Shown: in pieces, positions 805-24,997 of the stretch
Numbering within the stretch: position 1 is the first letter of the stretch
Layout of the letters: every line of letters begins with the position of its first letter
Assembly: GCA_001244265.2 (NCBI GenBank)
Contig: CDLV01000012.1
Location: 806,001-870,000 of the forward strand
Source: Microbotryum violaceum
Lineage: Eukaryota
Length of the DNA stretch: 64,000 nucleotides
Reading direction: 5' to 3'
The notes under the pieces: generated by a model
The model's database searches: none
What the model was told of the DNA's origin: nothing
What the model saw: the letters and a program-made list of their open reading frames with translations, nothing else
Position numbers and translations under genes: made by a program

Positions 805-3800
805 TCAAGTTTCGAGGGAATCCAACATCCTGAGTACTTCACGCGCCGTCGGTCGATTCTTCTCCTTGGGGCTCGTCATGGACTTGAGAAGCATCCTGAT
901 TTCGAGCGGGACCAAGTCGTGGCCGTTGAGAAAGTATTGATGCGGCGTGCCATCAACATAAGTCGTCGGTCCAGAGAACGCCATAGTCGGGTTATCGTCC
1001 TCATCTTCGTCCTCGGACGACTCGAAGGCGCCATGACTCGCCTTCGAGGAAAGGTTTTGCAAGTCATCATCGTCGTCCGAGGAGGGGGAACGGGGCGGCA
1101 GGGCGAACAGGTTGGAGGGGTGGCTTCTGGGAAGAGCTGATGGAGAGGCCGACGGCGAAGGCGAAGCCAGCACACTCAGACTAGCCGGGGAATCGTGAAC
1201 AGAAGCGGAGGCGCCCCCGCTCGGGGAGAGAAGCTTCTTCGCCAGTACCGCCAGACCCCAGCTGTTCCTGCCGGACGTACTCGCCATGCTGTGAACGCTA
1301 CGTTCGCTTTCGATCGAAGCGCTACGTCGGAGGCTCGAAGTCGATCGACCAGACGACAAGTACGACACACAACCGCCGCTCGAGCTGAGCAAGCTCAGGT
1401 TCGTCCCGCTGTCGGCTCGACTGTGGGTCCCGCTACGGATGCTGCGGATTGAGCTGCGCCGCGAGACACTCGCACTGCCCGTATCGTTGCCACGCTCGCG
1501 ACGCCGTTGCTCCCACTCCCAATAACCGCCACGCCCGACCCACAGCATCCTCTCGACCGTGCGCATGTTGGCAAAAGGTTCAATACCCGTGGTGAGGACG
1601 CTGAGGGTCACGCCGAGCGAAAAGATGTCGGCGGAGTGACCAAAAGGGGATGGTGCGGGGCGCACGAATTCTGGCGGTGCGTATGGCGGCGTTCCGAGGC
1701 CCAGAGGGTCGGTAGGAGCTGGGTGAGGTGACGTCGCGGAGGGCAAGAACATTGACATTCCGAAATCGGCAAGTCGGATCGAAAGATCTGAAGCGACCTG
1801 TGGGCACGCCAGCACACGGCTCGTCAGATCAATAGTAACGCAGGGGCTCACCGCCAGCAGCGCTGCGAACTCACGAGCACATTTTGTGGCTTGATATCGG
1901 CATGCAATACCCCACGCTCATGGGTCCACGCCACAGCTGCGACCAGTTCGGTGGCCCAGGCGAGCCATCGACGTTTGCTCATGCGTTCGGGGAATGCTTT
2001 GGCAAAGCCGAGCACATGCCCGAAGGGGCAGTACTCGAGTAGCAACATGATGCGAGACGTCGGTGGTCGAGTTGGGCCGGGGCCTTCGGATGACATCAAG
2101 GTTAAGGCAGTCCCTTGCGTCAGATTAGAAGCATCCGATACAATGCGGTCGACCCCTTCCGATGTGCGCGTACGCTGCCTAGGTTCGGCAGCGGAAGGGG
2201 AAGCGTCACCAACGACAACGATTGGATCAGGCGACGCTGTCGAAGGTCGTGGTGCGGGTGGCTCTGATTGACGAAGATCCTTGGACTTGGTGTGTATATC
2301 CGAGGCTCCCTGATCATCAACGGTCAAGCTCGCGTAAAGCTCGGGCATGTGGTCCAGGACTGGCGAACCTAATGGAGGTGAAAGACTAGGCCCAGTAAAC
2401 GAGGATTGCCGATGTAGCGATTGTTTCCTTCGGCGTGGCAAAGTCAAGATGGGTATAGGAACTGCCTCCGATGAACTGCGGGGTATCAAGTCGGAGTGCG
2501 TCGACTGCATGCTCGGGGCTCGACCCAGACCGATCGATACCGCCGATGATGGGGACGAGTCTTCGTACCACTTGCGCCTCCTCGCTCCGGCGTTCACCGC
2601 CGATCTATCCTCATCGACCAGCTCCACGCCGTCACGTTCATCACGGACCCCGAACAGCTTGAGCACATGCGCACTCCCTCTCGCAGCGATCGACTGCGGT
2701 GGGATTGGCGTCGTCGTCGGCGGCACCAGTTTGGACAGAATGAATGCCTCGCCGAGCCCGGCGATCTGTGACTCGCGATCTGGAAATATACGCTTGACGG
2801 CGCACAGCGTCCAGTGATGCTCGTCATGCTGAGTGACCTCTCTTGGGATGAAACTGCCTAGGAAGACGTTCGCGTGTCGGCCCTCGCCGAGGGACTGGTC
2901 GCGGAAGGGGGCCATTCGCACGCGAGGCGCCTGGCGCGAGTCGAGCACGGGGTTGTCGCTGATCCCTGGTCCTGGGCCGGCGATGTTGCTCTGCTGTGGG
3001 TTCGAGTTCGAAGGTGCAAGCTGGGCCAGTGAGCGCCAGGCCGGTGGTGTGAGTGGCGAAGGTACTGTTCGGGCGCCGGGCGTCTTGGTGCTTCCGATGT
3101 CGAGCAAAGGTGAAGCGGCGCGGTCACCTGACGAGGTCGAGGCAGAGCGAAAGTGGTTCATCTGGCCGATGCGCAAGTCGTTCAACTCCGATTCTGCGCG
3201 ATCAATGTCGTACATCGCAAAGAATTCGCTGTCACGGGGCGGACTTGTTGGGGTCGCCAGTGATGAGGACGAGTGCAGAGGCCCCTGAAGGTGCGACGGT
3301 GCGTTGATGAGGGCTGGACGCTGCAGATTGAGCTCGAGAGGAGGTGCACAATTGAGAATCATGGGCGCTGGTCTGATGAGGTCGCACGTGACGGGTGCGG
3401 TGCCGTTGCTCGTGCTCGTACTGTCGCTACCGATGGTGGTATTGGTGTGACTGCTGGCGTCCTGGGGGGTCGACTGGAGCAGCTTGAGCCCTCTCCTCCA
3501 TCCGCCATGCGGTGAGGACGACGACGCTGACGATGAGCCCGAGACGTTCGGTGCCGGTGCAGACGGCGATGGAGCGACTGCAGAGGCCGGTGGGGTGCCG
3601 CCTCGGCTGGCAACATGAGGCGTGACGTTGGACCAATCGAGGGCAAAGAGATCGTTTCGTGACTTTTTGGGCGTGGTCACGATCGGCAGCGGTTGCAGCA
3701 GGTCGGACGAGCCAGACAAGGTCGATGAGGTGCCCGGGCTCGTGACCGCACGCTGCTGCTGGTGGTGGTCGGCGGCAGCACGGCGCTGCTCCGAGGGCAA

Positions 3801-3896
3801 CTGATACGACGTTGAGCTCAGCGGAGGCGTTGCCCATGACAAGCGTCGGATCGAGCTGTCCGGTGGTGGCGTATCCGAGGCACGAGTCGACCACAT
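805..3896 (-). CDS. Ser/Thr protein kinase with long low-complexity N-terminus and inserts
   Basis: Motifs LGEGRHANVF, CAVKR, LLEYC, HADIKPQN, LADFG, GTPPYAPPE, DIFSLG and RPTA. A 77-nt intron at 1798-1874 (GTGAGT...CAG) joins ORFs 1848-3896 and 805-1851 in frame. Confidence 0.9.
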
Positions 3897-4802
3897 GGTG
3901 CTCGGCGTGGACGCTCGTCGGCGTCAACGTCGGCGTCGTCAAGAATCGAGAGAAAGAGAGGACACAGTCCAAGCGCGGGTCGATCTGGGACCGTCAGGCT
4001 TTCGCGGGGCCATTCAGTTCCTGATTTTGCAGAGCTAAACGTGAGGAAAACACTTGATATAACTAAGTTTCGGGCTCGCGGTATCAGGCTTGTCAAATTA
4101 TGTTTAAGCACTTTTGCACTCGCGCGTACGCCGCACAGACCTCCTCGACCGCTCGCCGCTCCAACTACAAGGACTGCTTACAACCTTCTAACCCGCGCGA
4201 TTCGCTGTCTCCTGTCCCGACTCGCATCCGACGTCGACGGCCCCAACAAACGCGGGCGGTACATCATCCCATCTGCCTAGCGCCTACAGCGCCCGGAAGG
4301 GGCACATTGCGATTGAATACCAAATTCCTCCTTCTTGTGACGAGTCGGCACCACCATGTCTTTCAAGCATCATGATTTGATATCGGTCCTCAAAGAAGCC
4401 AAACCTGAGGGTCCGGTTGCGAGCGTCTCGATCCTCATTGTTCAGTCAAATACACGTACTTTCTGAATCCCGTCTGGGCCTCTTCTATTTTGGAGTTTCG
4501 ACCTGAGCCGGGAAATCGAAGCGAAGGCGATGCCGAATTGCGAGTCGAGGTCAATTTTCAACATGAACTCGATTGCCCCTGAAATTCGCAGAACGCGCGG
4601 CCGCCGCGATGGCTCCGAGAACGTAACATTGGATCGTTTGACTGCCCAAGAACTGAACTGAAGAGACACTCCCGAAACTGTTGACCCAGAGATCAGGAAA
4701 CCGACGTAGGCCTTGAAAGAGGGCATGGAGGGAGAAAGAAGATATGAATATCACAACAAACGGAAAGTCGCACCGCACCAATGCACCCAACAAAGAAAAC
4801 CT

Positions 4803-8945: not shown

Positions 8946-10403
8946 ATGAGCCCCATCTCGTCGCTCAAGAATGAGGCGAGCGAGGCCAAGGAGGCGTCCA
9001 AGGAGGTTTGGAACTTTATGCGCACGCACAACTGGAAGAAGTCAGCCCGCAACTCGTTTCGGATGAAGTACTTTTGGTACTGGTTCGTCGGCATCATTCT
9101 CGTAGCCTTCGCCGTCGTCGTCGCCATCTACCGCGATCCCATCGTCAGTGTGAGTTGATCGCAACAGGCCCCAGGATGTTGGCTGGCTCGTCGCGTCGCG
9201 CTCGGCCTGGGCTCAAGCTGTGTGTCGATTGGCGAGGCTCCGAGGCCACGTCAGGGCCACGAATAGGCTGGGACGACAAGATCTCGGTGACTGACACTTG
9301 TTGAATGCTCTCAACAGTGGTTTGAGCCGAGAAAACACAACATCGTCAACCTCCCGGCGAGCTGGGCCATCCCCGTCGCCATGCTCGTCGTCCTGTCGTT
9401 CCCACCGCTGGGAGGGCACGAAGTCGTACTCCTGGTCGTCGGACTCATTTGGGGCATCTGGATCGGGTTTGCGATCGCATGCGCCGGCACCTTCATCGGC
9501 GAGCTGGCCTGTTTCTTTGCGTTCAAATACTTCTTCACCGAAAAGGCGCGCAAGGTGGAACACAAGTCCATCTTCTACGCCTGCCTCGCTCGGCTCATGC
9601 GCGACGGTGGGGTGTGGATCGTCGCCGTCGTGCGGTTCTCGGCGATTCCGGGCCACGTCGTGACCGCACTGCAGTCGACGGTCGGGATGCCCTTGTGGCG
9701 CTATTCGATCGCCGTCATCATCTCGCTGCCCAAGCAACTCGCGATCGTCTACCTCGGAGTCATGTTCGGCGAGACCAAGGACACCAGCAACCAGGCTTCG
9801 ATCGACAAGCAGCGGAGAATCTCGCTCGGCGTATTCTTCGGAACGGCGATCGCGACCGTGCTCGCGCTCTACATCGTCTACATGCGCGCACGGAAATTGT
9901 ATCCGGTCGTGATGGCCGAGGCCGAGGAACGCAGGGCGCTCGCCGCCGCCGAACTGGGAGAGAACCCTCCGCGGTCGCACCCACACGATCCCACCCTCAT
10001 AGGTGCGGCATGGGATGGCGAATCGATATCGTCCGATCTGGATCTGGGCAAGGACCGAGTGTTCAGTGCCGGTCCGCACAGCTACGTGCTGCCCGCGCGA
10101 GGGCGGCCGGTCAACTTTGATGGTCCGCACCAGCCTACGGGCCCGATAGGGTACGGGCAATCCCCGTATGCGCCGCCAGCCCGGATCCCGGCCGAGTGGA
10201 CCGACGTCGAAGCAAGAGAACGATGGGAGGCTGAAAACCAGCAGCAAGGGGGATACAACAACGGCCCGCCGCTGGCGCACTACGGCGCACCGCATCAGAT
10301 GGCTCGTGTTTCATCACCGCGGCTCAATTCGTACCCACCCAACTCGAACCCGAGCATGACAAGCTTTACACATCTACCGCTGCAAGGGTCAGACTACAAC
10401 TAA
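8946..10403 (+). CDS. TVP38: TVP38/TMEM64 (SNARE-associated, VTT/DedA domain) Golgi membrane protein
   Basis: SFPPLGGHE, GTFIGELACFFAFKY, VRFSAIPGHVVTA and SLPKQLAIVYLG motifs with several hydrophobic helices. One intron at about 9149-9317. Confidence 0.85.
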
Positions 10404-11430: not shown

Positions 11431-11998
11431 GACTGTTTGGAAGCTTGAGTAGTGTAGGGTTGTGTGGTGTTTGACGCAACAGATGGTGTACCTTGGGTAT
11501 GACACGAAGAGCGACGGGTCCGTGCGGCGCCACAGCCAACTCGCACTTCCAGAATTCCAGAAGGCGCTCCCTGGCGCCCCCCTCCTGCGCCCCCCTGACT
11601 CGCACTTGCTCCCCCTTATTAAGCTTGTGTCTGTCTCACCTGCTGGCTCATGTCGCTGCGAAAGCGGCCGACGAGGACTTGTAGGACGATTGACCACCAA
11701 AGCAAAATTATTCGATCTTCTAATCTTGAACGACTGTATTTGAGCACATATTCCGACCACCTGCCCGCGGGTAGCACTAGTCGTGTAAGTTGATTGGTAG
11801 TCTGCACTCTGACCGAGCAACCGAGGGCGATTACGTGAGCCCGGCCCCAAGACGTCATCCGACCCTTCCGCCTTGCAAAACGAACCAACATTTCGGATAA
11901 ATTTGAGTGTCCCGTATCTTTATCTCTTTCATCTCCTCCGCCTCCTATTCCTTGCATCACCCCTTGTCTTCCCCTCTGCGATTAAACCCAATATCGCC

Positions 11999-13186
11999 AT
12001 GTCGGCCTCCACCTCCACCTCGTCGCTTTGGACGCCACTCAAAGTCGGGCCTATCACACTCAGTCATCGCATCGTGATGGCCCCCTTGACCCGCATTCGA
12101 GCTGACCAGGACCATGTCCCGCAACAAGTCGCGGCCGAGTACTATGAGCAACGCAGCAACACCCCGGGTACGCTCCTCATCTCGGAAGCGACCCTCATCA
12201 GCCCTCAGGCGGGCGGAATGGGCAACGCGCCCGGCATCTGGAGCGAGGCGCAGATCCAAGGATGGAAGAAGATTGTCGACGCCGTCCACAGCAAGGGTGG
12301 CTTCATCTTCCTCCAACTCTGGGCCCTCGGTCGTGCCGCCGGTGCCGACAACCTCAAGCAAGAGGGCGGCTTTGACGTCGTTTCGGCGTCGGACGTGGCC
12401 TTCGAAGGCGGCTACAAGCCCCGACCCCTGACCGAGAACGAGATCAAGCAGTACGTCGCCGACTATGCGACAGCTGCCAAGAACTTTGTCAAACGCGCAG
12501 GCGGAGATGGGGTCGAGAGTGAGTTTGCCTCCCTGGCTACGAGAAAATTTTGCACTTTGTCTTGATTTTAACCCGAGGGTTTTTCGTCAACAGTCCACAG
12601 CGCCAACGGCTACCTGATCCACCAATTCCTCGAAACCAACTCGAACAAGCGTACGGACCGATACGGTGGATCCGTCGAGAACCGAGCCCGTTTCGGTTTA
12701 GAGGTTGTTGACGCCGTCGCCAAGGCCGTCGGCGCCGACCGCACCGGTATCCGATTAAGCCCGTACACGACCTTCCAAGGCATGAAGATGCCCGAGCATC
12801 AAGACATCATCGACACATACACGTACTACGTCAAGCAGATCAAGGAGAGGCAACCTGAGCTCGCTTTCGTCCACGCCGTTGAATCGTGCATCGCCGGTAA
12901 CGTCACCGAGGATGCCGACGAGCGAGAGACGCTCGACTTTTTGTACGACATCTGGACCCCTTCGCCCTTCTTGGTCGCCGGTGGGTTCAAGCGCGAGGAC
13001 GCCGAGCCCGTCACCGCCGCTCGCAAGAACACGGCCATCGTCTACGGCCGCTCGTTCATCTCGAACCCGGATCTAGTCGAGCGAGTGCGCAAGAGCGTCA
13101 AGTTTACCGATTACGACCGCGCCACGTTCTACATCCCTGGACCCCAGAACACCAAGGGGTACACGGACTACCCCAAGGCCACCTAG
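11999..13186 (+). CDS. Old yellow enzyme (NADH:flavin oxidoreductase / ene-reductase)
   Basis: HRIVMAPLTR, LLISEAT, FIFLQLWALGR, DGVE|VHSANGYL across an intron at about 12519-12592, NKRTDRYGGSVENRARF, YGRSFISNPDL, GYTDYP. Confidence 0.95.
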
Positions 13187-13401
13187 AGGTTTCTTTAGGG
13201 TGCAATATTTGAGTCGTACTAGAGCTTCACAGTCCTAGAGTGTATCATTTTGTATAGAAATGGCAAGAGCATATATTGGACTCGCCACCGATGAAAGCTT
13301 GGTGTTGCCGAGTGGACTTTGGCTGTTGAACGTTTTCGATTGGTGCAACAAGATCTTTGCTATATTGGTACATTCTACAAATGGAATTCTATTATATAAT
13401 C

Positions 13402-16400
13402 CTATTCTGCGTTTTCTACTGCGGCTGCTGAAGAGTACTGCTGTTGTCCTGGGAGCGCCTCCAAGTCGGGCTCCTCGTCTTCATCATAAGTGTCGTTTCG
13501 GAGCTGAGGTCGCACCCACTTCTCCTTGGGATTGCGCTCGCACTTTTCCTCTCTCAAAACGGCCTCCCACGTTTGCTGGGAGATTTCGGTTGCTTGTATG
13601 ATCCCGGCTCGCGCTCCGAACGCCGACGTCGTCCCGACCTGCTCGGACCAGACCTTCCAGTGATCCCACCCCATCCGGTGATTAACCAAACGTAGGCAGT
13701 CCGCCAAAGTATGGTCCGGGAGCACAAACTCGGGATCCTGTAATTGCTTGATCGACGGCGCTGGGTCATCACCGGGAAGGAAATCGTACGTCGTGTCGTA
13801 AAAGTCGTCGCGGCGACAATTGTATACGTGGTCCACTACGCTGCCCGGGGGTGGGAGAATGCGGAGCGGGGGTTGACCGCTGGCGTTGTACGCGATCGCG
13901 CTGAGCAAAAGCGGGTGACACTGCGCCGGCAGGGGTCGGGCGTGGTGGATGTGCGTCAGGATCTTCAGGTGCGCACGGCTCACCATCATGGCGCGTGGAA
14001 GGAGATGGGTGTAGCGGGTGATGCCGGGCATCGGATTTTGCTCCAGGTGACTCCTGAACGTTTCGGGGTCTACGTCCAACGGCGGCGAGAACTCTTCCAT
14101 CACCGTCTCCGTGAAGAGTCCGACAAGGCGGTCCGGCTCGTCCAAAGCGTACGTGAGCAAGGAAGTCAAGGCCGACTGCAAATAGACAGAGAGATAAGAC
14201 GGTGAGTAAGAGCAGCCCGAAAAAACAGCATCGAGTGTGTCAAAGCTCACCTTGTCGAGTCGCACCGAATCGGCCAAGATCAAGACTCGGGGCGAGGTCC
14301 CCAAGGTGCTAATTTGCGAGAGACCCCGACCAGCTTTGGCGGCGCGAATCTTGACTTTGCGAGTGTAAGGTCGTTTCTCGTACAGGTCGACTGTCAGCAT
14401 CGACACGTCTCTGCGGAGGATTTCTTGGCTAGAGTCGAGCAAGCTCGACACGATCTGCTTCGTCCACTGCGTGAGGCCACCAAGGGTTTCGAGTACGACG
14501 ACAGACGAGCCGAAGAGATCTTGGGATGCAAATTTGGGCTTGATCAAGTGATGCCGCAACGGGTGGTTGATGACCGGAACGAGGTCGATCCATTTGACCC
14601 TCGAGTGCCGCGACAAACGACTGAACGTCTCCCATATCGAACATCGTGTGGCAGTCCAGGAGTTTTTTCCGAGATGCGACGTGTGGAACAAGAAGCCGAT
14701 CGTGTCCATCTCGGAGCGCGCGATCATCCTCTTGCCGAGGTCGAAGCGAACACCGTGGTTCGCCGTCGTGTTGGCCCGGAACACGATTAGATCATTCTCG
14801 GCGTCGATCTGGGCCATAAGATGCGCAATCGCATCTCGATCCGCAAAAAGCTTGTCGTCGTCGAGGTAGAGAACCCAACCCCTCGAATTTTCATCGATCA
14901 CAAGAGCGTCGAGGTCGTACATCAACGGGGCTGTCGAGTCGGTGGCACCGCATACACAATCCCAGTAGCGCTTCTTGGCAATCGGATCCAGGGGAGGGAG
15001 GGAGCACGATTTGACCCCGGTGAGACCCGGAACGGTCGCGGCGAGGTGCCCACATTTGTGGCAGAGTCGATCCCGGTCGGCGTCCAGGTCAAAGGTGACC
15101 GAAAGCACTTCGCGCTTCGGCCCCGCGGGTGGGAGGGTAACCCCCTCTTGTGCGACGACGAACTGCTTTCGGTTGGGGTATGTTTGCTGGTCGAACGAGT
15201 CGTAGAAGTCTTGGACAAAAGTCCCACGGACGATGCGCGACAATACAAAAACTCGTTCGCCATAGTGGTCGGGTATATCCTTGTGATTGATACAATCATG
15301 GGATTGAGAGGGACAATTTGGGTCAAAGAGGAGCTCCAAATCGCTCGCCTTGGGACTCGAGAGATGGGAGCTCGTGATCGGTGGGAAGGGTTTGTGCTTA
15401 GACTCGTCGGCATTGGCCGCCGTTTCGTTCGCGGCGAGAAGGTCAAAGTAGACATCATTGTACTCGTGCATGCCAGGGAACTCGATGCCCATCGACCTGC
15501 AAGAAAGAGGCAAATGGGACGCTGTCAGTAGGAAGAAACGGGGCAAGTGGAAGCGAGATAGGACTCACCAATGATGGGCGATTGCGATCGGCTGACTCGC
15601 ACACTTAACCTCTTTGCGCCGTCCGAGCCACTGGTAGTTGCAGCCACACGGCAAGATCTCAAAGTCCTCGGGTAACATGCGGATGTACGAGTTGATGAAA
15701 TCCTGCTCGCCCCAACGCGCTCGTCGCCCGACGGATCGATAGGTGCGGGCGACGGTGCGCACGTAGCGATCGGTGAACGCGGCCTCGCGCATGCGGTCGA
15801 GACGCATTAACGCGACGCCACCATTGACCTGCACCGTCTCGATCTCGTGTGCACTGGCGCAGTAGGCGTGCTCGTCAAAGTGGTCCGGCGAGTTGTTCTG
15901 CGGGATGTTGCCGCATTCGAGGCCCTCGGGAACGCGCCAGTGGAGCGCGATCGGCCAGCAGCGATCCGGGTACAGTTGGCAGGCGTCGCCCATGTCGATG
16001 CCCATCTTGAGCAGTACTCGCTGATCGTCGGACTCAGCGTAGCAGCTCGAGAGATCGCTCAATACCGTCACGTCCGTATCGAGGTAGAGCACTTTTTCGG
16101 CGTGTATGATGATCTTGGAGAGGAACATCTTGCAATGCGCGCTTATGTGGATGTCTTCGTCGGAGAAAGGCAGCACCGCAGCGGCGAATTTAGCACAGAG
16201 GCCATGATCGTACGTCGAGACGCCGTGTCCCGAGTCGGCGAAAAACTCGCGCAGCTGGTCGTGGAGTTTGGGTGGGGTCACGAGATGAAAGTGCAGGCTC
16301 GGTCGAGAGGTGAGGAATTTGATCGCCGACCGAATGACCTGCTTAGCCTGGTCGACCCGATTGGCATCAAAGACCAACGCGATGTTGAAGGCGGCGTCGA

Positions 16401-19400
16401 GGCTCAGCTTCGTACCAGACGAATCACCACCTTCGTCGTCGGCTGTCGGAACAGGGGACTCGGCCGCCTCCTTCGCGAGTTGTCCCTGACGCACGCGGTC
16501 TTGCTCGAGACGTTCGTTCCGGGACTTGGCGCTGGCGATCAGCTCGTTGCGTTTTGCGATATTGCTCCACGCGCGGCTGTTGATCTCGGCTTGCATGATC
16601 CCGAGGCCAATGTCGATGGCATCGCACTCGTCGGTCTCGAGGGGGTCGACCGAGATTGCGACGAGCGAGCCAGGCACGAGTTGCAAATCGACGCGAACCG
16701 TCTCGTCGGGGGAGTTCACGGTATTGATCTTGGCGTGGACCGTCCAATCCATGCTGTCGTCTATGCGGGAGGCGAACGTCACCTCCGTGCCGTCCCCGCA
16801 GTGATGCGAGGCCTGCAGCTTCATCTCGGCGACAACATCGAGCTCCTTGGGCGACTTGAAGATTTTGACCGCGGCGTAGCGCACCCCGCGCGTGTCGATG
16901 TAAGGTTTCACGCCGAGCGCACTGAGGTAGGGTTGACTCGCCGCCCGGTCAACACCCCACGACCCGTCCTCGGGGAACGCTTCGGCATGGTACTGCGGGT
17001 CGACCGTCGGTAGCTTGCCGACGGGGATGAACGAATAGTACCACCCCTGCCAGCCTTGCACAAACTCGAAATCACGACTCGAGTCGGCCGTTCGCGGGAT
17101 CGGCAACGGGCGGTCCATCTCACTCTTGGCGTACATAAGCAAATGCGCCAAACCCATCTCCTGTACGCGCTTGTCGGCCAACAAAGGAGCGAGGGCGTGG
17201 TAGTTGGCTTCCCACGGGTCCATCGAGAATTTCTTAAACACGTGCAAAGGCATCGGTGAGTGCCGGGGCAGGGTAAGCCAACCAGGCCACGGAGTAGCAA
17301 GCACTCACCATACTCTCCCGAGCCGGATCACTCCTGACCCAGATCAATTCCTCGGGAATGGCGAGGTGCTTGTAGCCCTTGAGCGTCAGCCGCGTCCAAA
17401 ACTGCCAATCCTCGGCTCCGAGTTCGCGCGAGGTCGAAAAGCCTCCGAGATCCTCAAAGACGGCACGCTCGACAAAGACGTTGCCGCTGCCAAACGAGTT
17501 CGTGATCAAGCCCAAACTCATTCCCGATCCGAGGAACCAATACGTTCTCCGATTGGGTATCACTTTGGTCGTCGTGAACAAGGGGTTCATGTCGGAAGCA
17601 AACTCGTCGAGCCACGTGGAAAGCGCTTTGGCGCCCGTGCGTCCAGCGACCTGGACGACGGTTTCGAGGTAGTGGGGCTTGAGGACGTCGTCGTCGTCGA
17701 GAAAGAGCAACCAGTTCCCCTTGGCCAGCGCGGCCCCACGGTTCCGCGCTTCCCCGAGGTACGAGTTCTCGATCGTGACAAAGTGCCAGTTCGACCTCGG
17801 GGTAAAATAGCGGGCTTCGATGTCGGCCAGAGCGGCTAGCGTCGGGTTCTTCTTGGATCCGTCGTCGACAAAGATAACCTCGTAGCATTCCCGCGTTTGA
17901 CCAACGATCGAATCGAGCATCTGGGTAACCAGACCAGCGCGTTCGTAATGTGTGACGATGATGCTGATGCGGGGTGCGAACGAAGGAACGGCAGGTTTCC
18001 ATTTGGACGGCGTGGGGATGCTCATGATCCAATCGTGAAAATTGACCCAGTCTTCCGCCGCGGTCACGGTCTCGGGTCGAGGTCGAATCTTTGGCCAGGC
18101 CGTCGAGCGTAGCGCTTTCACTTCTTGGGCAATCCTGTGAGCAAAAGGGGTCGCACGCGGCGCAAACAAGACCTTGCTGTGGTCCGCGGGGTGCACGAGT
18201 TCCGGAATTCCGCCGACGTCACTAGCGATGAACCGAGCGCCGTACGCGATGCATTCAAGCACGGTGCTGGGCGAGTTGTCGATCAAAGCAGGTAGCACGA
18301 CCAGACGTCTAGGATCGGTGATGTAGACCAGACCTTGCTCTCGATCGTAGTCTCGGAGAAACTGGACTTGCAAATCGACGTCAGAGTGATCGCGGAGGGC
18401 GTCCATCGCGTTTGAAATCAGCGCGCTCGCATCGATGTGGGATTTCGAGTCTTCAAAGTCTCGCCCGAGAAACGTGATTTTGGTGATCGAAGTCGGCGTC
18501 TCAATCGATGAAGTTCTCTCAAACAAGAGCTCGAGGGTCTCGAGAAAGAGGCGGGTCCCTTTGCGCTCCTCAAGTCGACCGAAAAACACGAGCTCGTTGA
18601 CGGGGTGCACGCCTCCACTCTCGCTGGACAGCCTCCGGTTTACGTTTGGCAGTGGCCGAGCGCCGACGATGTTGGGGATCACAAAGGCATGTTGCGGCAT
18701 CTTCCACCCTCGCTTTTTCAGATAGTCGAGCATGTACTCGCTCGGTGCGATGGCGACGTCGGCCATCTCGACCGTGCGCCGTTCAAACTCGGCTTTTTGG
18801 AACGAAAATTTGTCCTGTGGATAGAGCTTGTTGAGGATCGTCGCCCATTCGACGTCCGCACCGTGCAGACCGACGACAACGCGCGTATTTTGCAACATCA
18901 GACCCTGCTGCCGAGCGAGAGTAGGGAAATAGCCAATGCCGGTATTGTCAGGGAAATGAATAACGTCCCACTCGTTGTCGTGGGCCTGCAGGAAGGCGAG
19001 GATCTGGCGCGAAGCGAGGGCTGACCATGACGTCGGCCAAAAGGGCTGCGATTCTTCTTCCACGAAATGTAGGTTTATCCCTTGATCCGAGAGTCTGAAG
19101 GCGAGACACAGAATCAGGATGCTTCGCTAACACTTGGCAAGCTTGCGTAGGACGAGAGCGGACCCGGGCAGAGACTCACATCCGCGTCAGATTGCGCACT
19201 TGGCCCATCGGATAATCTTGCATCCGATTGGCGATGAGAATGTCGACATTGACTATAGTAGAGGAAGCCAGAGCTGTGGCGAGCTCGCGAAAGGCGGTAC
19301 CAATACCCCCGTTCTTGTGCAAACCGGCGAGTTCGGACGTGACAATTAGGGCACGCGTCGGAGTCCGATCCGGATGCAGGAGTCGCGGGTTCTTTTTCCA

Positions 19401-19805
19401 GGGCAGCTCAGCGCGAGGTGTGACAGGGTCGGGGTGATTGTGGTAACGATGCAGCAGTGACCCCCAGGTGTAATCGATCTCGTTCTTGGAGGACAGGGAT
19501 CGGCCCTTGAGGAAGTGACCGCTGTTGTGTGTTCTCCGCCGCGAAGGAGCCCATCGTTGCTCGTACACGCGCCTGGCCAGCAGGAAGAAGACCAGCGCCA
19601 ACAGAGAGAGCACGACCCAACGCAACAGGCGTCGAGGTCGACGGTAAAGCCTCTGCCTGAGCTTGACGTCGCGACTGGACCGTCGGCGGAGCGAGAAGCG
19701 CGACCTCGTCGTCGATCGGCCCGTCCTCGAGGTGAGCGCGCTCGGCTCGGAGTTTGGTAGCGAGGACGATCCATCTACCGTGTAAAAAGAGTGAGGCGGT
19801 AGCAT
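13402..19805 (-). CDS. Giant multi-domain glycosyltransferase (GT4-like + GT2 + GT8 + GT-A-like + GT64-like), type II membrane protein, ~2031 aa
   Basis: Exons 19805-19180, 19094-17309, 17232-15569, 15496-14251 and 14175-13402 total 6096 nt in frame. Motifs: TM (WVVLSLLALVFFLLA), GGIGTAF, VFFGRLEERKG, DNSPSTVLE, IIVTHYER, VDDGS, RNRG, LFLDDDD, YLDTD, VNGGV, GEQDFIN, YLDDDK. Confidence 0.85.
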
Positions 19806-20296
19806 CTCATCCCTGGGAACCGACGAAGCTGATCCAAGCGCAAGAAAGGTCGGGGGCAAATGAGCAGGACTATAAGGAGGGCGGAAGGAGGTCGGGGGTC
19901 GGCGTTCGAACTTTTGGACTTGGAACCGCAAGTTGACGCGACCTTAGAAAGCGATGAGGTAACGGTTCGGAGTTGCGGATCACTTGCCATTGGAAGTTGG
20001 AAAGAAGCAGGCACTCGAAGAAAATGCAGACCACTCTACTGGAATATTCGTGATTAGGTTTTGAGTTTTTGAACCAGCACAGCCAAAATAAAAAAATTAA
20101 AAAAATAAAAAGGCCTGGTCAATGCTGCCTGTATTTGACTGCTTAGTAAACGGTGCCGATTTTCACTGAGAGCTGAGCCTGAGCGGAACCCGCCGCCGTT
20201 ACGTTTTCCGTCCTCTCTGCCCTATGCCATATAACCCATGCCCGTCGTTTAGATACTGCAACCACGTCAACTTTGGCAACCCCCTCCTTGGCCACG
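19806..20296. promoter_or_regulatory. Putative bidirectional promoter with poly(dA) tract
   Basis: About 490 bp between divergent start codons, with an A-tract AAAATAAAAAAATTAAAAAAATAAAAA at about 20085-20111 in otherwise GC-rich DNA. Confidence 0.5.
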
Positions 20297-21567
20297 ATGA
20301 TGCGACTCCGGTTACGCTTCGGACGACGGAGTGTCCACGTGGCGCTGCCCTTGTTCGCCGTCGTGCTCATCTGGTCGTACTGGACTCTCGCGCCATCCTC
20401 AAGCCGGCTCTACGACCCCCGCACCTCGGCGATCCACAAGCCTTTACCGCAGCCACTTGGAGGACCCATCACAAGCTCCATCATCGTCCCCGCGTACAAG
20501 GAACGAGCCAATCTCCGACCGTTGACCGAGCGCATCTTCCAAGCTGTCCGGGACAAGGCCTCAGTCGAGCTCGTTATTGTCGATGACAACTCGGGGGATG
20601 GTACCGAGACAGAGATTTCGGATCTGAGGAACGAGGGTTACAACGTCGAGTTGCTGGTCAGGACCGGCGAGAAGGGGCTTAGCAGCGCCGTGCTGAGGGG
20701 GTTCGAGATCGCACGGGGCTCAAGCTTGATCGTCATGGATGCCGATCTTCAGGTCAGGAATCATTCGACTGAGAGCTTGAGATTGATTCCATTGCTAACG
20801 GGTGTCTTTACTTGTTGCAGCACCCGCCAGAGACAATCCAACCGCTGCTCGACTCGCTCAGCGACGAAATTCCGATCGCACTCGCAACTCGGTACGGTAA
20901 AGGGGTCAGCATGTCCAAAGGCTGGCCACTGTATCGCAGAGTGATATCGTGGGGGGCTCGAACACTTGCCAGGCCGTTGACGAGTGCCAGCGATCCCATG
21001 ACGGGCTTTTTCGCCATTCGCCGAGATCACGTGAGTTGCGGAGCGTCCGTTGGGTCGAGTAATGAAACGTCGAACGCATCACACGTAGCTCACACTTTGT
21101 GTCCAATCCTAAAACAGTTTTTGAAGTCACGCCCGATCAACTCGTCCGGGTTCAAGATCGCCCTCGAGTTGATGCTGAAAACTCCGCCGAGTCGGATCGC
21201 CGAATCGCCGTATTCGTTCGGGCTGCGACAAACGGGGACGTCCAAGCTGTCGTCCAAAGTGATGGTACGCTACGTCGGACAGCTCTTGACGCTGTACGCT
21301 TGGAAGATTGGGATCCTGTTCCATGTGCTTGTAGCGCTGGGGGTAGGTTTGGGGGTGCTCGGGCTCGAACAGGCGGTTGGTATCGTGCGGAGAAGAAAGG
21401 GCACAGGACCGATGTTGGTCGGACACATGTCAAGGGAGAGGAAGCCTATGTTTATCCCGGGCGGTGGAGGTGGGGGCGGAGGAGGTGGATTGCGGGGCAA
21501 CAGTAGGCAGTTGGGGTCGACGAGGAATTTGCCGCCGGCGGATCGGCATGGCAAGCGGATGATGTAA
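20297..21567 (+). CDS. DPM1: Dolichol-phosphate mannosyltransferase-like (GT2)
   Basis: SIIVPAYKERANL, IVDDNSGDGT, GLSSAVLRG, VMDADLQ|HPPE, RRVISWGA, SDPMTGFF, GFKIALEL, FGLRQTGTSKL. Introns at 20753-20820 and 21031-21117. Confidence 0.85.
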
Positions 21568-21795: not shown

Positions 21796-24700
21796 ATGAG
21801 CGCCACCACTTCCGCACCGCCACCTCGGCCCAGATTCAAGACAAGGTTAGTAACGTATCCCAACTTCTCTGTAGGATGGCACACAGCACATTGCACTGGA
21901 GCTAGCTCCAACTCGTGCGAAGCGACGTCTCCGGGAGATGAGCTCGACGGGCGAACGAATGAGGCGTAACGAATCCTCTCTTAGTGGCTTTCCAGCTACA
22001 GCAGAGCGTCATTACTGCTTTTGCTGCTCGATGACTAGGTCAAACAAGTCGAGCACCTCCGTTGCAGCGACGCGGATCGTTCTCGATTCCAAGCCCACAG
22101 TCGAGCTCAGCTGCCTTCAAGGCCCTCTCGAGCATGGAAAGAGGAATCAGAGCTCACATCAGTTCACCTTCGCACAGTTTCAAGGCCGTCCGAGCATACG
22201 AACCTATCCACACGGGCGGCAAAGTCGTGCTTTCCGGCGATGGATCCTGGCTCGTTTCGACACTGGACGACCAAGCGCTGGTTAGTGACATCGCAACGGG
22301 AGAACGGATACAGCTCCTAAAAGGCGTAAGTTTCATCCTTTTCCCTTATATGGCCTGCATTATCCCAACTGAACCCACCTCCCGCCTCAATCTTTCTCTC
22401 TATCAGGACTCGTCGGCGGTCACGACCTTGGCCATCACCCCGACCCCCGCCTCACCCAATGCAGGTGGTTACCTCTTGACCGCCTCCCGATCTTTGGCAC
22501 TCCACCTCTACTCGCTCCCTTCTTTGACCCTGCATCGCACCATCGCCAAGGCCCACTCGGCACCCATCATCACCTCCGCCGCGGACCCCTCGGGAAGGCT
22601 TTTCGCGACCGGTTCCGCCGACGGCATCGTCAAAGTCTGGGATGCAGAAAACGCTCACTGCACCCACGTCCTGCACGGCCACGGTGGTCTCATTTCGGCG
22701 CTCTTCTTCGATGTTGGCGCCGACGGCCGAGCGAGGTTGGTCTCGGGCGCTGACGACTGCAAAATCCGAGTGTGGGATCTGCACACGCGGGAATGTGTTC
22801 ACGTCCTCGATGGCCACACCTCGGTCGTGACGGGCTTGCAGGTCACCAAAGATGGCAAAAATTTGATCTCGGGTGGACGTGACCAGGTTGTCAACTTGTG
22901 GGATCTTGAAAGGGGAGTGCTGAGGAAGACAATGCCCGTTTTCGAGACGCTCGAAGCCGTCGGACTCGTCCAACTCCCGGATCAAGTCGCTGTATGGACG
23001 GCGGGTGACAAGGGCGTCATCCGGTTGTGGGACCTTCGAAATGGCGAGGAAGTCAACAAGGAGCAGCGAGGGAACGGCAAAGGGAAGGTCCACGAGGTCG
23101 TCCAGGTCATGTGAGTAGACTCGGCATCGGTCGCGCCACAATCGTTTATCTCACTTGTGCCCCGTTTCGATCTGCACGCAGTCACAACGCCACCACCTCG
23201 ACCTTGACGGCGGTCTATGTTGATCAAAATATTATTACTCGGAGTCTCCCGACCCTCGAGGTGCTTCGCCAGATCGTCGGCTACAACGATGAAGTCATCG
23301 ATGTCGCCTACCTCGCGCCGAGCCGGCCAGAGGACGAGTCCCATTTGGCCGTGGCGACGAATTCGGATCTAATCCGCGTCTATGATCTGGCTCGTTTCAA
23401 TACTTCTTTGTTGGAGGGGCACAATGACGTTGTGCTCTGCCTTGCGAGATCGACCGATGGTAGCCTTCTGGCGAGTGGCTCCAAGGACAAGACCGCGAGA
23501 GTATGGCGACCCAAGTCGTCGGGCAAAGGATGGGCGTGTGTCGCCAGTGCCGAAGGGCATGTCGAATCCATAGGCGCCGTCGCCGTTTCCAAGAAGGAGC
23601 GCAATTTCCTCGTCACGGCGTCGCAGGACCGAACGGTCAAGATATGGGATCTCGCTTCTGCATTAGGCGCTGAGGAGGAAGGCGAGGTCAAGGATGATGC
23701 GGTAACCGTGGCTTTGAAATCATTGACGACACAGAAGATTCATGACAAGGACATCAACTCGTTAGACATCTCACCCAACGATAGATTGCTTGTGTCCGGA
23801 TCCCAGGACCGTACGGCCAAGCTCTTCTCGATCACCTACACCGCCAAAACCAAATCCTCGCCACCGACCGCTGCTCTATCTCTTCTCGGTACTCTGAAAG
23901 GGCACAAGAGGGGTGTATGGAGCGTCAAGTTCTCGCCCGTCGACCAATGCGTGGCGACCGCTTCGGGTGACCGCACGATCCGCCTATGGAGCTTGGCCGA
24001 TTTCACTTGCGTCAAGACCTTCGAGGGGCATACCAACTCGGTGCTGAGGATCGACTTTTTGACTCGAGGGATGCAGCTCGCTTCGTGCGCCTCGGACGGA
24101 TTGGTCAAGGTTTGGAACGTCAAGGACGAGCAATGTGTGTCGACGCTCGACAACCACGATGAGAAGGTCTGGGCATTGACGGTTGCCAAGGATGAGAAGC
24201 ATCTCGTCTCGGGTGGTGCGGACTCGGTCATCACCGTCTGGCAAGACGTTACGGAGGAGGAGGAAAAGGCCAAGATTGAGGAGCACGAGGATCAAGTCCT
24301 GAAGGCGCAGGACTTTGAGAACTACCTCTCGATCAGGGACTACTCGAATGCGATACTGTTGAGTCTGTCCATGGACCAACCGAAGCGACTGCTCAAACTC
24401 CTGACCGAGGTCCGACTCGCAGCCTCGGAGGATTTGAAGAGCTACACCGGTTCGAGTCAGGTCGATCAGGTGCTGCAGTCGCTCGGTGATGTCGATCTAC
24501 GACAACTTTTGCTCTACGTCAAGGATTGGAACACGAATGCGCGCACGTCCGAGGTCGCTCAGGGTGTTCTCCACGCGATCCTCAAGCTTCATTGCGCCGA
24601 GAAGGTGCTCGAATGCCTCGATCCACAAAAGCCGAAAGAGGACCTGGACCAGGACGTCAACTTTGGCGTAGCAGACGATGAGGATGAGGATGAGTTCGTA

Positions 24701-24997
24701 AATGACGAGAAACGCAAGGAGCGACGACGAGAATTGGCGAAGAAGCGACGCACCGAGATCAAGGCTGGAGATTTGTTGCAGGCTTTGATACCGTATACGG
24801 AACGGCACTTGAGTCGGGCCGATAAGATGGTGCGCGAGAGTTATATCGTCGAGCACTTGCTGGGTCAGATGATCAGCTATGAGCTCGAGGCGGATGCCGT
24901 CAATGTGGCGAATGGCCTGCAAGCCATGGAGGTAGATCTCGATTTGGATAGAAATGATGCCGTAGCTGCTTGGGCGGATGAGGACGAGGAGGAATAA
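21796..24997 (+). CDS. UTP13: U3 snoRNA-associated WD40 protein Utp13/TBL3
   Basis: Spliced N-terminus RFKTS|FKAVRAYEPIHTGG, multiple WD repeats (GHKRGVWSVKFSP, GHTNSVL), and the Utp13 C-terminal domain (WNTNARTSEVAQ, ALIPYTERHLSR). Confidence 0.93.

Follow-up and report, generated by a model that had tools for sequence, protein, structure and literature searches.

A spliced gene of Microbotryum violaceum encoding a single chain of five glycosyltransferase folds, four of them probably catalytic

Glycosyltransferases (GTs) with several catalytic centres, such as LARGE, EXT, the bacterial O-antigen polymerases and A111/114R, bring order to glycan synthesis without a template, and to our knowledge those which have been characterised carry two or three centres. 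LARGE1 is a Golgi type II co-polymerase in which a GT8 xylosyltransferase is joined to a GT49 glucuronyltransferase, EXTL2, EXT1-EXT2 and EXTL3 are GT64 alpha-GlcNAc transferases, and A111/114R is cytosolic or soluble. The gene described here lies on the minus strand of a 64,000-nucleotide stretch of the Microbotryum violaceum genome (positions 806,001 to 870,000 of contig CDLV01000012.1; hereafter the window, to which all coordinates refer) and its predicted product carries five GT folds. For the chlorovirus PBCV-1, three glycosyltransferase functions are reported for the one protein A111/114R (PMC7826918). Of the published proteins found, A111/114R is the nearest precedent for a single-chain multi-transferase 'assembly line' making one complex glycan; it is viral and has three domains against the five folds here, and the two are likened by architecture only.

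The best explanation of the data, and one that is likely as a whole, is that the locus is one gene for a single-pass chain of 2031 residues with five GT folds, formed by fusion of two cassettes and bearing four active centres and a non-catalytic GT64-like end. Among multi-centre GTs, a conserved eukaryotic chain of five transferase folds which keeps the signatures of four intact would stand at the extreme. LARGE1 is the closest solved relative of its GT8 module by fold (Z 22.1, 226 aligned residues, 20% identity), and both proteins place several GT-A domains on one type-II-like chain. LARGE1 has two folds including GT49, however, whereas the window protein has five, one of them a GT-B module, and no GT49. 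Module 5 shares the GT64 fold with EXTL2, EXT1-EXT2 and EXTL3, with homology running through a family of stand-alone proteins in which the DDD and CDD motifs align, but the window protein and its 29 orthologues lack both motifs and have no GT47 partner domain. In full-text literature searches, no fungal enzyme of five-GT-fold build and no function for one were found described, in agreement with the initial annotation of this DNA, which knew of no characterised fungal enzyme with this architecture.

Motifs were counted in 30 sequences, namely the window protein and the 29 orthologues, and two AlphaFold models, of exon 3 and of the C-terminal part, were built from 30-sequence alignments. At the N-terminus, a basic, Arg-rich tail of 58 residues precedes the only segment found in a Kyte-Doolittle scan (Table 1), as the initial annotation had proposed in describing a basic tail and one transmembrane helix. 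Its GT-B, GT2 and GT8 modules likewise exceed the Pfam cut-offs, with boundaries matching the proposed ranges, and the motifs it quoted are in place (GGIGT, FFGRLEERKG, DNSPSTVLE, VDDGS, FLDDDD, EDW, YLDTD, NGGV, GEQDF and YLDDD). In module 1, both Rossmann halves of a GT4 enzyme exceed the Pfam gathering cut-offs: the N-terminal half matches Glyco_trans_4_4 (39.6 bits, cut-off 29.7) and Glyco_transf_4 (36.7, cut-off 28.5), and the C-terminal half matches Glyco_trans_1_4 (34.1 bits, cut-off 27) and Glycos_transf_1 (28.9, cut-off 26.4). Both GRLEERKG and DNSPxTVxE were found in 30/30 sequences. EX7E is the acidic motif of the GT4 C-terminal half; here the stretch DNSPSTVLE reads Dx7E, not Ex7E, and the D...E pair is present in all 30.

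Module 2 matched K4CP (1.4e-10) and CgT (7e-8) among PDB sequences and, as expected of a GT2 enzyme, carries DDGS, LDDDD and [AG]ED, each in 30/30. The motif of processive synthases, QxxRW, was not seen by eye in the exon-2 translation, so nothing points to module 2 being of that type. Module 3 carries the GT8 motifs D[TS]D, NGGV and GEQD in every sequence, and after LARGE1, which was also found by Foldseek (6e-13), its fold matches were LgtC (Z 19.9) and UGGT (Z 19.3).

Between modules 2 and 3 the initial annotation had left a region of about 250 residues unassigned. It still matches no Pfam family, but a helical stretch and a beta-sandwich can now be recognised there in the exon-3 model (pLDDT, the predicted local distance difference test, 72.6), which consists of helices, the beta-sandwich (residues ~60-215), a long helix and the GT8 module. 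The beta-sandwich has the invariant motifs H.CGDG and CD. Its atlas matches were all nameless clusters, none of 1391 candidates was a near-length homologue, and a local hidden Markov model (HMM) of the region found one relative outside the orthologue set (P0083). Fold searches with the exon-3 model gave match lists filled by GT8, and phmmer of exon 3 against PDB sequences gave no matches at E <=0.01.

The C-terminal model (pLDDT 77, predicted template modelling score 0.75) contains two further GT-A domains, modules 4 and 5. As a whole it matches tandem GT-A enzymes, namely PmHS2 (1.2e-8), K4CP (7e-7) and LARGE1 (7e-5), as well as COLGALT1 and LH3. At the sequence level, phmmer of the C-terminal 697 residues against PDB sequences gave no matches at E <=10 and exons 4 and 5 matched no Pfam family at E <=1. 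The closest folds to module 4 were CgT (5hea, Z 16.9), WrtF (16.4), RmlT (16.1) and SpsA (15.5), with TarS/TarP also found (Z 15-17), and 25 of its 30 nearest named atlas clusters were of GT2 type. Strand 4 of the module's Rossmann-like GT-A fold is followed by an acidic motif, which is an adjacent DD in 28/30 and NDD in 2/30, and D1572 and the cysteines are invariant.

Module 5 is closest in fold to EXTL2 (1on8_B, Z 18.2, root-mean-square deviation 3.2, 221 aligned residues, model residues 326-626), followed by EXTL3 (Z 16.7) and EXT1/2 (Z 16.4-16.5). The fold and the homology are thus those of GT64, while a direct Pfam match and the DDD and CDD motifs are lacking; PF09258, the GT64 family, is listed in none of the 31 Microbotryomycete rows of precomputed Pfam assignments. 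In the aligned columns, where the stand-alone proteins read LNLDDDV, HCDD(I/V)xLN and SLNNRW and EXTL2 reads LMVDDDT, NCDDIAMN and NKMRNR, the DDD site has become SDS (25 sequences), ADS (3) or SDN (2), with DxD in 0/30. The CDD site reads CH(P/A/Q/G) or CQ(P/G), with CDD in 0/30, and the SLNNRW stretch reads S---GL, a three-residue deletion. In EXTL2 these acidic motifs are the binding sites of the metal-nucleotide and the donor sugar. Because both motifs are lost in all 30 sequences, module 5 is probably a retained, non-catalytic pseudo-glycosyltransferase; it is still conserved (column identity 0.3-0.56), and a confident model shows it packed against module 4.

The five-fold architecture is real, as found by Pfam, the AlphaFold models and the fold searches: GT4, GT2 and GT8 are above the Pfam cut-off and two further GT-A folds follow them, so that more than two GT folds are present. 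The second DD(D)-bearing module and the GT64-like tail of the initial annotation are upheld by the fold matches and by sequence links through intermediate relatives. Its 'up to five GT modules' holds for five folds and probably fails for the GT64-like end as an active transferase. Given the loss of motifs in module 5, the five modules are to be read as five folds with, probably, four catalytic centres.

To judge from sequence comparisons, the protein is a fusion of a GT4-GT2 cassette, a linker with the beta-sandwich and a GT8-GTA-GT64 cassette, so that the architecture would be no one-off but one built from two pre-existing multi-GT cassettes. Outside the Microbotryomycetes, matches of the exon-2 search cover residues ~150-820 (GT4-GT2) only, at 25-34% identity; they include bacterial proteins (Acidithiobacillus, Oceanibium, Algicella), some from protists and many environmental ones that are named 'O-antigen biosynthesis' and contain TPR repeats. 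The bacterial proteins named 'O-antigen biosynthesis' at JGI (~1100-2200 residues) also hold several transferases on a single chain and are collinear with GT4-GT2 at 30-34% identity. In contrast to the window protein, they have TPR repeats and further GT2 domains and nothing that corresponds to the beta-sandwich or to modules 3 to 5, and they are presumably cytoplasmic. A FastTree phylogeny of the GT4-GT2 cassette was made from 58 rows, these being the matches among P0032-P0087 with a high-scoring segment pair (HSP) of >550 residues, plus 7 Microbotryomycete rows. It placed the Microbotryomycetes as a monophyletic group on a long stem within an unresolved polytomy. Some relatives of the GT4 cassette from dictyostelids and other protists (P0071, P0075, P0077, P0079 and P0081) carry sulfotransferase domains (PF13469, PF00685) on the same chain, which suggests other fused glycan-building and glycan-modifying enzymes.

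For the second cassette, an exhaustive phmmer search with the C-terminal 697 residues found 114 proteins at E <=1e-3, including a family of ~880-1120 residues. In this stand-alone family, Pfam detected GT64 (PF09258, E 4e-21 to 6e-29) in 9/9 scanned members (P0129, P0130, P0136, P0138, P0139, P0142, P0146, P0165 and P0178 are among the family) and an N-terminal GT8 in 5/9. Its build is an N-terminal hydrophobic segment, with which most members start, a LARGE-like GT8, an orphan GT-A and an intact EXT-like GT64. BLAST aligned residues ~1080-1895 of the window protein with these proteins in a single HSP in 20/22 cases, at 25-30% identity and E down to 1e-107. The two are collinear over this range and have in common the cysteine pattern and, in module 4, YLDDD; the stand-alone proteins differ by the absence of GT4-GT2 and the beta-sandwich and by an intact GT64 with DDD and CDD. 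A profile of the family matched solved structures of LARGE1 (1.6e-23, the closest) and EXTL2 (4.6e-22), and also EXTL3, EXT2 and EXT1. Named members come from the chytrid Cladochytrium replicatum, the green alga Picochlorum sp. BPE23 and one MMETSP transcriptome; no characterised member was found in the literature.

A database search with the exon-2 translation returned 29 full-length named orthologues of 1896-2057 residues and two fragments, the top match (98% identical) being from M. saponariae. They come from Microbotryum, Leucosporidium, Sporobolomyces, Rhodosporidiobolus, Rhodotorula, Phenoliferia, Meredithblackwellia and other Microbotryomycetes. The six genera whose taxonomy was checked all fall in this class (Kriegeriales, Leucosporidiales and Sporidiobolales), and Microbotryum itself belongs to the order Microbotryales. 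The protein thus appears to be conserved across the Microbotryomycetes. The full-length orthologues are all collinear single chains, which gives the architecture the wider occurrence that the initial annotation had left to a survey. Databases label them hypothetical protein or give names that mislead, among them 'proteophosphoglycan ppg4' and 'WcaA', for neither of which could a paper be found in the literature. One further model, probably a merged one, is P0117 of Microbotryomycetes sp. JL221, which has 3161 residues, ~1100 too many, with the shared part starting from about residue 1270 and a mid-region HMM match at 2070-2336.

The coding sequence is spread over four long minus-strand open reading frames (ORFs), 19176..19943 (255 residues), 17234..19126 (630), 15565..17304 (579) and 13402..15564 (720), which are arranged head to tail across 13402-19943. 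The initial annotation had joined these four apparent genes into one frame through four short introns, and its exact coordinates have canonical splice ends; a CTRAY-like branch site is also found in each intron. The five joined exons (Table 1) give 6096 nt, equal to 2031 codons and one terminal stop, with the frame kept across all joins. The chain of about 2031 residues first proposed is therefore recovered in full and is collinear with the orthologues. As intron 4 keeps the frame and contains no stop, its removal could not be decided from the sequence alone. It should also be noted that 5 nt before the start codon there is another ATG, out of frame with it and the first to be met after the end of the spliced contigs at 19933. 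This ATG opens an 11-codon frame (19810-19775, minus strand) which overlaps the main start and may be an upstream ORF or a site of leaky scanning.

Four public sequencing runs (X1, X9, X10 and X11) were compared with the window. X10 and X11 each gave a single contig (7661 and 7548 nt, respectively) which spans 12900..19933 with 0 mismatches and crosses all four joints. The contigs skip 14176-14250, 15495-15566 (with the cut moved by +2, 15497-15568), 17233-17308 and 19095-19179, the skips having CT..AC ends on the plus strand. Because the skips are precise and GT..AG-ended, both runs are taken to be derived from cDNA. Such an origin also fits the lack of coverage at 19934-20248 and the step to about fourfold the depth figure in the next contig. 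The unspliced genomic form of the locus was found in X9, and X1 gave short low-depth pieces only, some of which extend into introns. One spliced RNA form therefore joins all five exons, with intron 4 removed, and the single mRNA foreseen by the initial annotation is seen as one contig with all four joints in two of the four runs.

The junctions were also compared in an alignment of the spliced protein with 11 orthologues. Junction 2 is collinear in 11/11, junction 1 in 10/11 (P0002 has a 10-residue insert) and junction 3 in 10/11 (P0013 lacks 12 residues). At junction 4, the 25 residues encoded by the intron are absent from 9/11, all outside Microbotryum, and are kept only by two Microbotryum models, P0001 and P0002 (M. 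saponariae and M. intermedium). As both the spliced contigs and the nine other genera lack these residues, the database models of the two Microbotryum species wrongly retain intron 4.

Since the chain has a single anchor, the membrane would not separate the modules from one another. A lumenal position in the secretory pathway, with the protein in type II orientation, is favoured by the invariant cysteines of the second cassette, which are numerous in GT8, the linker and modules 4 and 5, and by its solved relatives being lumenal: LARGE1, EXT1/2, EXTL2/3 and XXYLT1 are lumenal Golgi or endoplasmic reticulum enzymes. As GT4 and GT8 are retaining families and GT2 an inverting one, retention would be expected at the GT4 and GT8 centres and inversion at the GT2 centre, probably also in module 4. 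The presence of four different centres in a single chain suggests that sugars are added in order, and up to four different sugars or linkages could be attached in succession to one acceptor. The product may be an oligosaccharide block peculiar to this lineage, or else a repeat unit polymerised in situ into a heteroglycan, and it may be destined for the wall, a capsule-like layer or a glycoconjugate. The Golgi-lumenal location and the repeating cell-wall or exopolysaccharide product put forward in the initial annotation are putative. Within the chain, the beta-sandwich may hold the growing glycan, and the GT64-like end, without catalysis of its own, would most likely act in scaffolding, dimerisation or holding of the acceptor.

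A number of observations weigh against this reading. Mean column identity in modules 4 and 5 is 0.3-0.55, as against 0.6-0.75 in modules 1-3. In module 4, D1572 is the only invariant Asp and the third position of the DxD is D in 14, T in 11 and S in 5 of the 30 sequences, so that this module, too, might be inactive. Positive charge is found on both flanks of the anchor (about +7 on the N-terminal side and about +5 on the C-terminal side, counted by eye), so topology is not settled by charge, and the cytoplasm is presumably where the bacterial proteins related to the GT4-GT2 cassette are active. Neither X10 nor X11 is recorded as RNA, and their contigs, which on the 3' side continue into the convergent neighbour, cannot show transcript ends. 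The neighbouring genes yield no pathway clue, there being no sugar-pathway cluster around the locus, and biochemical, genetic or localisation data were found for no family member.

Some of these observations would also suit a protein with two centres only, which alternate as in LARGE1, EXT1/EXT2, K4CP and PmHS2 and make a disaccharide-repeat polymer, the other folds being scaffold or glycan-binding. The resemblance of the whole C-terminal model to the tandem GT-A polymerases PmHS2, K4CP and LARGE1 would agree with this, as would LARGE1 being nearest to the GT8 module, the degenerate state of module 5 and the weak constraint at the DxD site of module 4. GT4, GT2 and GT8, however, keep every signature motif in 30/30 sequences from four orders, which is hard to explain with two centres, and this alternative is considered unlikely.

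That the catalytic part faces the cytosol and, on that side of a membrane, builds a glycan linked to a lipid or a protein is very improbable. The small charge bias across the anchor, as counted by eye, speaks for it, as do the bacterial or environmental origins of the nearest GT4-GT2 relatives outside the class. On the other hand, the many invariant cysteines of the second cassette, the hydrophobic start of most stand-alone proteins together with the lumenal location of solved relatives, and the long N-terminal tail all speak against it, such a tail before a single anchor usually staying cytosolic. Finally, that the four ORFs are separate genes or their join an annotation artefact can be set aside as next to impossible: no supporting point was found, the Microbotryum database models differing only by the retained in-frame intron 4, while single contigs from two runs cross all four precise joints, the frame is kept through every join and 29 orthologues are single chains.

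Taking the single-chain protein with four active centres further, it can be proposed that a bacterial-type GT4-GT2 cassette was welded to a eukaryotic LARGE-/EXT-like cassette, giving a class-wide single-chain Golgi 'assembly line' with four live centres and one fossil that alone makes the distinctive wall or slime heteroglycan of the Microbotryomycetes. This combined proposal is tentative and, taken as a whole, rather doubtful. If it is true, the stand-alone GT8-GTA-GT64 proteins would be an unrecognised eukaryotic family of matrix-glycan polymerases. The wall and exopolysaccharides of the Microbotryomycetes are rich in mannose and fucose and poorly understood, and the gene could be linked to them. 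Rhodotorula toruloides has good genetics, which makes the system tractable. Side results of the analysis are the stand-alone family in chytrids and algae, the apparent pseudo-enzyme GT64 and the corrected Microbotryum gene models.

Table 1. Coordinates in the window of the gene for the five-fold glycosyltransferase, its exons, introns and protein domains, and the neighbouring genes.
Feature	Position	Strand	Basis or content
Exon 1	19180..19805	-	start ATG 19805-19803; basic tail, membrane anchor, stem, GT4 first strand and Gly-loop KNGGIGT
Intron 1	19095..19179	-	85 nt, GTGAGT..CAG; joint in X10 and X11
Exon 2	17309..19094	-	remainder of GT4 (GT-B) module and entire GT2 module
Intron 2	17233..17308	-	76 nt, GTGAGT..AAG; joint in X10 and X11
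Exon 3	15569..17232	-	helices, beta-sandwich, long helix, GT8 module
Intron 3	15497..15568	-	72 nt, GTGAGT..CAG; joint in X10 and X11
Exon 4	14251..15496	-	Cys-rich linker, module 4, start of module 5
Intron 4	14176..14250	-	75 nt, GTGAGC..CAG; in frame, stop-free; joint in X10 and X11
Exon 5	13402..14175	-	stop TAG 13404-13402
Hydrophobic anchor, residues ~59-78	19572..19631	-	only 19-residue window with Kyte-Doolittle mean >1.6
Module 1, GT4-type GT-B, split by intron 1	18125..19358	-	Pfam
Module 2, GT2 (GT-A fold)	17330..17974	-	Pfam PF00535, 80.4 bits (cut-off 23.3), E 2e-22
Beta-sandwich	16588..17055	-	exon-3 residues ~60-215 of AlphaFold model, pLDDT mostly 73-94
Module 3, GT8 (GT-A fold)	15574..16386	-	Pfam PF01501, 45.5 bits (cut-off 24.3)
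Module 4, GT2-like GT-A	14551..15261	-	fold (model residues 79-315); without Pfam family
Module 5, GT64-like GT-A, split by intron 4	13618..14532	-	fold (model residues 322-626)
GT2-family gene, divergent neighbour	20183-21567	+	at least 2 exons; Pfam PF00535, E 6e-20
Old-yellow-enzyme-type NADH:flavin oxidoreductase, convergent neighbour	11813-13186	+	PF00724, E 4e-46
VTT-domain membrane protein	9291-10400	+	neighbour gene, housekeeping context
Protein-kinase gene, split	805-3923	-	neighbour gene, housekeeping context
Utp13-type WD40 gene, two ORFs	22035-24997	+	neighbour gene, housekeeping context

Among the neighbouring genes, the divergent GT2-family gene appears to resemble dolichol-phosphate mannose synthase; in X10 and X11, the depth figure of its contig is about four times that of the contig of the five-fold GT gene. 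On the other side, the spliced contigs of both runs pass straight from the five-fold GT gene into the convergent oxidoreductase gene, so that the two transcripts probably overlap at their 3' ends or meet there.

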